Positions 22,131 through 25,032 of a DNA stretch of 39,275 nucleotides are shown piece after piece. The DNA comes from a virus. Taxonomy: Duplodnaviria > Caudoviricetes. The notes beneath the pieces were generated by a model, which saw only the letters and a list, made by a program, of their open reading frames with translations, had not been told where the DNA came from and made no database searches. The stretch is taken from positions 1 to 39,275 of IMG/VR virus record IMGVR_UViG_3300022407_004144; one strand, 5' to 3'. Each line of letters opens with the position of its first letter. Within the stretch, counting starts at the first letter, position 1. The position numbers and the translations under genes were made by a program.

Positions 22131-23416
22131 GCGGCCAACTCCTCTGTAGCCAGTTCAGACAGCGACCGCTTGTCGTGCAGCGCCTGCCAGATCCTCTCGT
22201 CGATCGTCTTCTCAGTGAGAAAGACATAGCACCAGACCGGGTGCTTCTGGCCGCTGCGGTGCAGCCGACCGACCGTCTGCTCGAACAGCTCCAGCGACCA
22301 CGGCAGGGAGACGAACACCACGTTCGACCCGCCGTGCTGGAGGTTCAACCCGTGCCCGGCGGACTTCGGATGGACCAGCAGCATCTCGATCTTGCCGGCG
22401 TTCCACCGTTGAATAGCATCCGCGTCGTCCAGCGTCTGCGCCTGCGGGTATCGCCGCTTCAGTTCGGCGAGCTCCTCACGGTAGTTGTAGACCACCAGGG
22501 TGTTGGCCCGCTGGTTCTCGGCCAGCAGTTCCTCGAGCCGGTCGAAGCGGTGCGACGAGAACCAGACCGGCTCGGGCGCGTAGGCCCACCCACCGGCGAG
22601 CTGCTGGAGCTTGCTGGTCATCGCCGCGGCGGTCAGGGCCGTGACCATCTCGCCGCCGACCTGGGCGACGTAGTCGCGCTTCATGCGGTCGTACGCCTTC
22701 ATGTCCATGGTCGAGCGCACCTCGACGACGTTGAGCGGCGGCAGGGTGTCGGCGTACTCACCCGGTTCCAGCACGAACGTCGCGGGCTTGATCTTGGCCA
22801 TGATGCCTGCCAAGGCGCTCGGCCGGGCGACCCACTGGCCGAACTCCCGGCTGATCGGGATGAACCACGTCTGGAGGAACGCCCCCTTGGAGCGCCCGAG
22901 CAGCGTCTCGTCGATCACCTTGCACTGACCGAAGACGTCCTCCAGCCCGTTCGAGGTGAACGAGCCGGTCAGGCCCCACCGGAACTTCAGCGGGGCCAGC
23001 AGCTTGAACAGTGCCTTGAAGCGCGCGCCGGACGGGTTCTTGAGCCGGGTGAGCTCGTCGAACACCACCCCATCGAAGCCGTCGAGCGAGGGCAGGGTCT
23101 GGATGGTGTCGTAGTTGGCGACGACGACGTCGGCCGCGCTGGCGAACGCGCCCGCGCGCTGCGCCGGCGTCCCCACGGCCACGGCGACGGACAGGCCCGG
23201 AGCCCACTTGGGGGCCTCGACCGGCCAGACGTCGGTGCAAACCCGGCGCGGGGCGAGCACCAGCCACCGGCGGGCGACGCCGTCGCGGATCATGGCGTGC
23301 ATGGCGGCGAGGGTGATGGCCGTCTTGCCCGCGCCGACGGGGGCGAGGATCATCGCCCTGTCTGTCTCGTACAGGAAGTCGGCGGCCTCGTCCTGGTAGG
23401 GGCGGAGCTTCATCAC
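22127..23416 (-). CDS. SNF2-family (SF2) helicase
   Basis: LRPYQ, GAGKT, VFDELT, GLTG, SAGHGLNLQ, QTVGRLHRSGQ. Confidence 0.92.
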   Translation of the reverse strand: MMKLRPYQDEAADFLYETDRAMILAPVGAGKTAITLAAMHAMIRDGVARRWLVLAPRRVCTDVWPVEAPKWAPGLSVAVAVGTPAQRAGAFASAADVVVANYDTIQTLPSLDGFDGVVFDELTRLKNPSGARFKALFKLLAPLKFRWGLTGSFTSNGLEDVFGQCKVIDETLLGRSKGAFLQTWFIPISREFGQWVARPSALAGIMAKIKPATFVLEPGEYADTLPPLNVVEVRSTMDMKAYDRMKRDYVAQVGGEMVTALTAAAMTSKLQQLAGGWAYAPEPVWFSSHRFDRLEELLAENQRANTLVVYNYREELAELKRRYPQAQTLDDADAIQRWNAGKIEMLLVHPKSAGHGLNLQHGGSNVVFVSLPWSLELFEQTVGRLHRSGQKHPVWCYVFLTEKTIDERIWQALHDKRSLSELATEELAA

Positions 23417-25032
23417 ATCACCGCCTCTATGAACCCTTGCGCTTGCGCGAGGTTGATCGCGTTACCGTAGCCGCGCAGCCGTCCGACCCGATTTTCAGAC
23501 CCGACGGCAAGCGGGAAGTAAGCCTCGGCATAGGCTTTGTGGTCGAGAGCCCAAGCCTCCTGTGCAGCCCGTGCCAGAATTGATGACAGAAGACGCACAG
23601 GGTCTGAATGTTCGCCCGACGATTGTCCGTCCAGTCCTCGTTGACGTGGTGCGCGTGCAGTTCCGTCGTCTGCCCACACGCCTCGCACGCCGCCTTGAGA
23701 TGTTTCCGCGCGTGGTAGAGATAGGCGTTCCGAGATACCCCGCCTTTGCTCCGCGAGTTGGCGCAGGAAAGCGAGCAAAAACGGCGCCTCGCAAAGTCCC
23801 GGAACCCTTCCAAGCGGCCATCCTTCGGATGCCGTCTGCGCAACAAGGTCGCACCACAAGTCTCGCAAGGCCGTTTCGTTTCCGGGTATTTCGAGGACGC
23901 CATTTATTTCTTCCTCGCACGCTTGGGCACTCGCATCCCGCACACGTCCCAGGCTCTCGGCAGACCCATAAGCCACCGGCTGTGGGCTGGCGCTAACTGG
24001 CCGCCACTTTCCATCCCGGCATCCGAGCCAGTCAACATCTCGCCAGAGGCCGTTAGTCGGGCCGGGGCAGCTATCGCCGCCGCCATCGACAGATCCTGCG
24101 GCGAGCCTTTGCGCTCGATCTCCCGCAGCGACCCCTCGACCGTCCGCACGTTCTTCTCGCCGTCCGCAGCCCGTGTCGTTGGCCACCCGGTCACCAGCGA
24201 GACCGTCTTGCGGCTGCTGTCGTTGTTGCCCGCCGCGTTGTTGCCGTTCTGCGCTGGCGTCCCGGCCATCGGCGTCGGCCAGCCCGCCTGATCCGCCACC
24301 AGCCCCAACGTGACCTGTACCTTGCGGCCGTCCGGCGTCTGCCCCGTCGCGCTCGTCCCGTCCGGGAAGGTCTGGCCGCCGCTCGGCGTCGTGGGGCTCG
24401 GCCAGCCCGCCGCCCACGCCTGATAGTCCAACAGGTCGTTGCGCAGCTTGCCGTCCTTGCGCGCCCACGAGTTCGTCAGGTCCGCGCCGCCCGATTTCCA
24501 GTCGCGTGTCGTCGGCGTGGCCCACCCCTTCTCGCTGCCCCGCCCAATAGAGCCGCTGTCGAATATGCGGCGCGCCGAAGCCCGCAGCGCAGGTATCGAC
24601 CGCCCCGACGGCGTAGTTCGCGCCTTCCAGGTCAGAGTGTACAAGGTCGAGCCAAGCGAGGCCGTCCTTGCTTGCAACCTGTTCGCCAAGGACGACGTCA
24701 GGGCGGCGCTCCGCGATGAGACGGAAGAAGTCGGGCCAGAGGTGGCGGGCGTCGTCGAAGCCTCCGCCCTTGCCTGCGGCGCTGAACGGCTGACAGGGGC
24801 ACGAGCCGGTCCAAACCGGACGCTGGTCACTCCATCCAGCCGCGCGCAGGGCGAGGCTCCAGACGCCGATGCCGGCGAAGAAGTGACATTGGGTGTAACC
24901 TTGAAGATCATCGGCCTGGACGTCCTTGATGCTGCGCTCGTCCACGTCGCCCGGGGCGATGTGGCCGGCCTTGATGAGTTCGCGCAGCCACGCCGCCGCG
25001 AACGGGTCGTATTCATTATAATAAGCAGTCAC
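23413..25032 (-). CDS. C5-cytosine DNA methyltransferase, alpha (catalytic) polypeptide
   Basis: Motif [41 protein letters not shown]; no motif IX in this frame. Confidence 0.9.
23427..23903 (-). CDS. HNH endonuclease nested inside the methyltransferase alpha ORF
   Basis: CETC..FCSLSC Zn site; CEAC...[32 protein letters not shown] directly after the beta TAA, with GAGG upstream. Confidence 0.85.
   Translation of the reverse strand: MASSKYPETKRPCETCGATLLRRRHPKDGRLEGFRDFARRRFCSLSCANSRSKGGVSRNAYLYHARKHLKAACEACGQTTELHAHHVNEDWTDNRRANIQTLCVFCHQFWHGLHRRLGLSTTKPMPRLTSRLPSGLKIGSDGCAATVTRSTSRKRKGS
23904..25016 (-). CDS. Methyltransferase beta polypeptide in the +1 frame (start uncertain: 25016, 24911 or further in)
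   Basis: 370-codon open frame within alpha; four GW(A/P)(T/S)(P/T) repeats; [17 protein letters not shown] resembles motif IX; arrangement as in M.EcoHK31I. Confidence 0.75.

Follow-up and report, generated by a model that had tools for sequence, protein, structure and literature searches.

We describe here a DNA methyltransferase (MTase) of the C5 type that is written in two reading frames and that carries, wholly inside one of its genes, what is probably a homing endonuclease gene. The locus lies on the minus strand of a virus record of 39,275 bases (IMG/VR record IMGVR_UViG_3300022407_004144), the whole of which we refer to as the window. The alpha chain of the MTase encloses both the beta chain, which is read in the +1 frame of alpha, and the gene of a zinc-finger HNH nuclease, which is read in the same frame as beta while alpha stays open across it. 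That this is a real locus of three products under selection is well supported by the comparisons of homologs given in this work, and we consider it probable, on the same kind of evidence, that the HNH protein is a homing endonuclease whose gene resides within its host gene without any splicing.

The alpha chain (539 residues, 23413..25032) is an open reading frame (ORF) that matches the Pfam family DNA_methylase (E 5e-14) and phrog_363 (E 3e-75), and its structure model matches the HaeIII and HhaI MTases. Judging from the profile of the predicted local distance difference test (pLDDT), alpha is divided into C5-MTase motifs I-VIII (residues ~1-170), a disordered portion (172-335), an insert that overlaps the HNH gene (~350-505) and motif X, with its GYGNAI, at ~518-538. 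The beta frame is open from 25016 to a stop that ends at 23904, and the ATG at 24911 is the likely start, which places beta at 23904..24911; beta matches phrog_1008 and phrog_31772 ('DNA methyltransferase'), and it returned no match in Pfam and none in the PDB by profile search at E<=10. Conserved features in an alignment of 24 betas include LGSTLY, WPTP repeats and a motif IX-like stretch of 14 residues; RWLMGLP of beta is a candidate for motif IX. In the HNH gene (158 residues, 23427..23903; Pfam HNH, E 0.006; PHROG HNH endonuclease, E 5e-10), the HNH core comprises residues 1-128 (23520-23903), and the remaining 30 residues are an apparent relic of the old C-terminus of beta. An earlier interpretation made from the letters of the window alone (the sequence-only reading) had noticed that this ORF lies inside alpha and out of frame with it, that it shares the beta frame and joins the beta stop as TAA ATG, and that alpha continues through it as far as GYGNAI, all of which is borne out by the ORFs of the minus strand. 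A ribosome-binding-like GAGGA (23912..23916) is present within the beta tail, 8 nucleotides (nt) 5' of the HNH ATG, and a Shine-Dalgarno-like word precedes the start in 65 of the 95 nested homologs that have an ATG, a count made with a loose pattern and no null model. We infer that translation of HNH is coupled to the beta stop.

Selection keeps the host frame free of stops and the HNH protein intact, as comparison across the predicted genes of the family shows. Scans with the HNH protein and with an HNH alignment returned at least 137 records at 60 bits or more (including the window and some repeat fetches), and among those listed 132 have MTase motifs beside the HNH and five are free-standing. 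Made non-redundant at 90% identity, the nested genes number 111 (72 at 70%), with a median HNH identity of 47%. The frame one base out of phase with HNH is stop-free in all 111 of these listed nested genes, where 824 stops would be expected, and likewise in 72 of 72 genes of the 70% set, where 559 would be; T is found at 0 of 2453 third positions at which a stop would arise, versus 2260 of 7009 elsewhere. The sequence-only reading, to which an alpha frame commonly broken across the insert would have been damaging, is upheld on this point. For the remaining four frames, the counts of open genes are 3, 14, 0 and 9 of the 111, and the five free-standing homologs contain 33 stops versus 31.8 expected. 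For the window alone, the probability of a stop-free host frame is ~3e-4; the probability summed over the family is not a true P value because the genes share ancestry, although their divergence is deep. A natural control for the openness of the host frame is provided by locus L187, in which a free-standing HNH gene (2173-2551) that groups with the nested gene of L008 and the window clade is intact, has no MTase motif in 2.2 kb on either side, and shows 5 stops in the formerly open frame.

The per-frame ratios of nonsynonymous to synonymous substitution (dN/dS), which the sequence-only reading had put forward as a check, are 0.14 in the HNH frame and 1.57 in the host frame, over 28 pairs at >=70% identity that are not all independent. 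Values of this kind place HNH under purifying selection, and that of the host frame is the pattern expected of a passenger frame. The zinc-finger HNH core is intact in the predicted proteins, eight cysteines and H85 being invariant and H86, N98, H107 and H111 being present in 110 of 111 homologs; the HNH model has a pLDDT of 87, and its C-terminal half weakly matches HNH cores.

Besides the window there are 110 nested representatives, and in 66 of them (type I) alpha is unbroken from its N-terminus to motif X. In 15 others (type II), alpha ends early and beta continues from motif IX across the HNH gene as far as motif X, and these are scattered on the HNH tree (7 changes, 5 of them forced); 23 more lack an N-terminus in the fetched DNA, and L217 is truncated. 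Since type I and type II loci both read through the nuclease gene, the trait that is kept would be translation across it to the downstream motif, by whichever chain. Loci with the type II, or AquI-like, arrangement include L019, L107-L109, L115, L123, L154 and L204, among others, and the HNH-free L286-L307; in L009, L011/L183, L087 and L189 the HNH is fused in frame to the end of beta.

Further evidence comes from a segment that is coded in both frames. The sequence-only reading had proposed that two related segments bracket the insert, and all four of the peptides that it had read from them are in place, 465 nt apart. The likeness of their DNA, however, is not above chance in the window alone, where the two 45-mers agree at 25 of 45 positions (26 in their best register), a likeness that at least 11 other offsets in the gene equal or exceed, at 26-28/45. 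Because a direct comparison of both copies does not rise above background, homologs are needed to establish the duplication. Empty alleles were scanned for with the alpha N-terminus as query, and the loci are the best 80 of 215, a biased sample in that the free alleles were chosen by likeness to the window. In this near subfamily, 73 of the 80 loci are HNH-free and carry a single segment in which beta motif IX overlaps the entry of alpha to motif X, as had been anticipated of HNH-free alleles; 2 have the HNH, and 5 are truncated short of motif X. Among the 73, L045 carries an extra insert of 60 nt. Over two distant subfamilies, the single-copy arrangement is found in most free alleles (73/80 and 45/71).

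A DNA profile made from 49 distinct HNH-free alleles ranks the two window copies first and second among 78,470 40-mers, at 16.3 and 7.5 bits, with the next at -7.6. Across 31 HNH alleles of the near subfamily, the mean profile scores of the upstream copy are 32 as beta and -3 as alpha, and those of the downstream copy -19 as beta and 21 as alpha; taken singly, all 31 upstream copies fit beta better than alpha and 29 of the 31 downstream copies fit alpha better than beta, which substantiates the suggestion that the duplicate was split by frame. In the window, the upstream copy (23938..23994) is recoded and retains the motif IX-like end of beta, and the downstream copy (23473..23517) retains the FPL-G---RVGRLR entry of alpha into motif X, with its beta frame decayed and the relic of the old beta tail after it. 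The upstream copy tracks the consensus of the free alleles to ~23995, beyond which it is recoded at third positions; free-type contigs depart from the window sequence at 23995, and loose contig ends fall there in 2 runs (X3, X4). Where 38 of the 49 free alleles encode a serine of beta by TCC, 28 of the 31 upstream copies use AGC. From these sequences, the upstream copy looks like cargo of the element and the downstream copy like old host sequence. A 34-mer that spans the junction is matched with no more than 4 mismatches by 44 of the 49 free alleles; none of the 31 upstream copies has fewer than 5 mismatches to it and none of the 31 downstream copies fewer than 14, an alteration that would fit self-immunity and also a relaxation of constraint. 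The locus is not an assembly artifact, because the block (23410/23416-23973/24022) recurs on contigs of three other studies, at 8-15 differences per 558-613 bases.

In the HNH-free alleles, then, a single stretch encodes both the motif IX-like end of beta and the entry of alpha into motif X. In the HNH alleles a recoded copy closes beta upstream, the HNH gene begins at the beta stop, and alpha continues across that gene, shifted by one base, until it reaches motif X in the older copy. On the reading that we prefer, that of homing without splicing, the doubly constrained stretch would be the target of cleavage. The element, bringing the upstream copy with it, would exchange ~12 host bases for ~477, a net gain of 465, so that neither copy would rebuild the target, and HNH would be made through coupling to the beta stop. 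The 155 extra residues of alpha would be carried as a looped-out insert, with alpha still pairing with beta as an active enzyme.

In the model of alpha, helices with a pLDDT of ~75-93 extend over much of residues 361-440 and 481-500, and residues 172-335, which lie over the middle of beta, have a pLDDT of <50 and no invariant column, the conserved residues there belonging to beta. Prolines in the host frame fall below the expectation from synonymous choices (0.76 overall in 72 HNH genes, with 57 control genes at 1.12); in the predicted helices of the same 72 genes glycine stands at 0.70 and aromatics at 1.29, and in the loop at 1.04 and 0.85, as ratios of the observed-to-expected type. Host-frame identity in distant pairs is 0.23, scarcely more than the null of 0.21. 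The residue ratios hint that weak selection favors a folded insert, but they fall short of proof because the limits of the helices come from a model built on some of the same sequences, and because the genes are related. The predicted alpha-beta complex scores 0.86, with the best of 3 controls at 0.00 (the mark for this score is reached by 116 of 157 solved pairs and 2 of 215 mismatched ones; runs agree in at least 61% of contacts, and partner pLDDT is 60-62). Its tightest contacts include beta 247-256 on alpha 518-528, and SRWLMGL of beta, from the upstream copy, packs on motif X of alpha, just past the downstream copy. The prediction supports a layout like that of M.EcoHK31I, short of demonstrating binding, and this support is limited because the two halves of a known fold are apt to score well through their resemblance to solved MTases.

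The HNH gene is patchily distributed, and by sequence its cassette occurs in unrelated MTase alleles. Locus L021, which shares synteny with the window (DNA blocks between 21230 and 27838 are 75-87% identical), has an alpha N-terminus that is 90% identical, and its site is empty; in L003, the HNH DNA is 95% identical to that of the window and the alpha N-terminus 80%. HNH genes that are 95% identical belong to MTases with 73% identity between their beta chains, and the cassette recurs at ~98% identity on contigs of three studies, where the DNA downstream of it does not align to the window. On the alpha tree, grouping of the HNH alleles into a single clade is rejected (32 versus 58 rows, p-AU 0.0006, approximately unbiased test). 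At the 5' end of the same MTase gene, a GIY-YIG/NUMOD3 endonuclease gene (25029..25523, minus strand) that is absent in the syntenic L021 appears to be another mobile endonuclease with a replacement copy of its own, in the same pattern as the HNH: within 25029-25569 the old MTase start is displaced (25546-25569, reading MTAYYNEF up to a stop that comes shortly before the GIY-YIG start codon, the ATG at 25523), and a recoded start takes its place.

Several observations weigh against this reading of the HNH gene as a homing element. The matches of the HNH to known folds are weak, with a best Foldseek E of 0.08 (and no match at E<=0.001 with the HNH model), a best Z of 5.7 (Cas5-HNH, root-mean-square deviation 3.0, 72 aligned) and only weak HNH-fold matches in a search of the PDB with the HNH profile. 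In 3 of the 110 nested representatives alpha is broken upstream of the HNH, by frameshifts in L128 and L188 and by a stop in L132. The dual-coded segment stands out little in its conservation (0.86-0.90, with the best alpha motifs at 0.89-0.91), and recoding of the upstream copy would be expected anyway from released alpha constraint and shared ancestry. The expectation that HNH-free homologs should not carry the two segments apart holds in most of them, but 20 distant HNH-free loci have motifs IX and X separated (16 type II, 1 single-chain and 3 with IX and X apart), and therefore de-overlap can exist without this HNH. Furthermore, the HNH alleles are clustered on the alpha tree (12 changes versus 26 when shuffled), with strongly supported branches forcing only 2 changes, and the nearest neighbor is an HNH-free allele for only 21 of 65 HNH alleles. 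As the other 44 have no free nearest neighbor, much of the spread would be vertical, and phage recombination or repeated loss could explain part of it. The bias in the sampling of free alleles bears on these counts as well, and the activity and target of the nuclease are putative.

Much of this could be accommodated if the HNH were a domesticated accessory nuclease of the phage, employed in competition with co-infecting phages, in nicking of host DNA or in recombination, and moved by ordinary recombination between conserved flanks with no targeting of the empty allele. The clustering of HNH alleles on the MTase tree would agree with such a role, as would purifying selection that is strong and old, the fusion of HNH to beta in one frame in 4 of the 66 representatives of type I (L009, L183, L189 and L087), a weak fold likeness to the T5 SciA nicking endonuclease and the GVE2 HNH, and an almost complete lack of degenerate copies, although decayed copies would be under-sampled by the search. 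We regard this account as unlikely, while giving it more weight than those that follow, in that it does not readily provide for an insertion site that is fixed in a conserved coding stretch and furnished with a recoded replacement copy, for near-identical cassettes in differing MTase alleles with differing downstream neighbors, or for the same recoded-copy pattern at the GIY-YIG gene. The sequence-only reading had offered another alternative, a compact restriction-modification system with the HNH as partner nuclease; the HNH would then be the restriction enzyme that goes with this MTase, and methylation would protect self DNA. The tight linkage (132 of the 137 listed family members are within a C5 MTase), the likely translational coupling and the occurrence of HNH cores in restriction enzymes would all suit such a pair; however, most MTase alleles do without the nuclease, which is carried by only 2/80, 1/80 and 1/72 loci, near-identical HNH genes reside in MTases as diverged as noted above, and the HNH of L187 is intact with no MTase nearby, so that we hold this explanation to be quite improbable. 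Least probable of all is that the overlap is due to chance or that the insert is removed by RNA or protein splicing as a novel intron or intein, for although the flanking repeat resembles what PMC11855218 considered an intron-like signature, an excised intron would need no open host frame, yet that frame is open in 111 of 111 genes, type II alleles keep it open by the other route, and at E<=1 the insert region matches no Rfam intron family (a single chance miRNA match, E 0.95, lies outside the insert) and the insert frame no Pfam family, intein domains included. Among the contig joints listed over the locus, none skips the insert at 85% likeness.

In fungal mitochondria, free-standing homing endonuclease genes bring along a substitute for a portion of the gene that they enter, and mobE of Aeh1 splits nrdA. 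These cases resemble that of the window in that insertion into coding sequence is accomplished without splicing and a duplicated segment keeps host function; they differ in that the host gene ends or splits at the element, whereas in the window one host chain would be translated through the nuclease gene.

A closer counterpart is the ShiLan domain, an out-of-frame HNH in the gp65 methylase of Mycobacterium phage ShiLan (Arsenault, Gosselin, Gogarten 2025, PMC11855218; Gosselin et al. 2023, PMC9957025), for which homing without splicing has been proposed (PMC11855218). The concept of a hidden, splicing-free HNH is thus already published; the suggestion of the sequence-only reading that a nuclease can invade a methylase gene in this manner stands insofar as there is no recognizable intron or intein, but not as a new idea. 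As described in PMC11855218, the ShiLan domain is likewise a zinc-finger HNH in an alternate frame of a phage methylase, with a stop-free host frame, no intron or intein detected and a patchy distribution, and the first 11 residues of its insert resemble the 11 that follow the site. We considered and rejected membership of the window HNH in the ShiLan family: it would work like the ShiLan domain yet is not a member, because gp65 is a DPPY amino-methylase with its HNH in the +2 frame and the window HNH profile scores gp65 at 4.8 bits. The window case is one of another HNH family, methylase class and frame, in that the C5 MTase that hosts it already has two coding frames, the HNH shares the +1 (beta) frame, the repeat can be explained as a frame-split copy and coupling to the beta stop is possible. 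The window HNH family has >100 diverged members versus about ten for ShiLan, and the portions of PMC11855218 available to us mention no second subunit.

The two-chain host itself has known relatives. In M.EcoHK31I, beta lies wholly in another frame of alpha, with motifs I-VIII and X in alpha and motif IX in beta (PMC2836561, PMC3404938), and the window has the same distribution of alpha motifs and the same enclosure of beta; a nested nuclease is not described in the available portions of those accounts. The target-recognition domain of M.EcoHK31I is there assigned to alpha, whereas in the window the middle of alpha is unconserved and predicted to be disordered and it is the middle of beta that has conserved WPTP repeats. 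In M.AquI (PMC3404938), alpha holds motifs I-VIII and beta IX-X, an arrangement shared by our type II relatives (15 HNH-bearing and 16 HNH-free loci); the window is type I, and in HNH-bearing type II loci beta reads through the HNH gene. No description of an alpha/beta C5 MTase with an HNH inside it came to light in our search of the literature, which covered few subscription journals; a preprint (bioRxiv 10.1101/2025.01.02.630785) with 3 occurrences of 'out-of-frame' may bear on novelty.

If the preferred reading is correct, the locus offers a concrete mechanism by which a nuclease gene can reside inside an enzyme gene with neither intron nor intein, through a recoded copy, coupling to the stop of a second chain and a stop-free host frame. 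For this family it would answer two questions that the ShiLan paper raises, namely how a hidden HNH is translated and what the flanking repeat represents. With the empty allele of L021 and a carrier in culture, phage phiKX1 (L101), homing is open to a direct test, and the more than 100 diverged alleles, with free-standing escapees as controls, constitute a natural data set on the evolution of overprinted frames. A broader and more tentative proposition, which we regard as possible rather than probable, is that homing elements which dispense with splicing form a widespread class and make use of the points at which two-frame MTases switch frames, at more than one dual-coded site (IX/X here, VIII in L131 and L139, and, for a second nuclease-like family, between VI and VII in L008 and L010), with either chain reading through, and that selection has shaped the passenger frame into a newly folded helical domain over the nuclease gene, giving a locus of three proteins whose de novo domain would stand in for splicing.

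At the second site, in L131 and L139 (~2200-2600), the HNH is of the same family, alpha motif VIII is duplicated on both sides and beta reads through. In L008 (~424-900) and L010 (~1500-1980), a second, unrelated hidden ORF is found in the +1 frame between alpha motifs VI and VII, with alpha open across it; it has two CxxC pairs and an SLDR...GY...N-RVV motif, ends at the beta start in L010, is in frame with beta in L008, and returned no Pfam or PHROG match. The motifs of the L010 ORF suggest a nuclease.

The window is complete as a virus record, with terminase, portal and head-closure genes and a replication block that includes a DUF2800 exonuclease, DNA polymerase A, a primase and an SNF2 helicase; the MTase/HNH locus is flanked by the GIY-YIG gene and this helicase. 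As regards the target of the MTase, only CTAG and GTAC are low among the tetramer counts of the window. The WPTP-type repeats of the beta frame (24180-24540, minus strand) vary in copy number across alleles, with indels and rearrangements in related contigs, and are candidates for target-recognition modules. A related C5 MTase, gp70 of ShiLan (L433:8344-9513), has motifs IX and X in the frame of its N-terminus and is single-chain. The full arrangement is also present in the cultured Komagataeibacter phage phiKX1 (LC644975.1), where annotation misses it: only part of beta and a C-terminal fragment are annotated, as hypothetical proteins, and neither alpha nor the HNH is.

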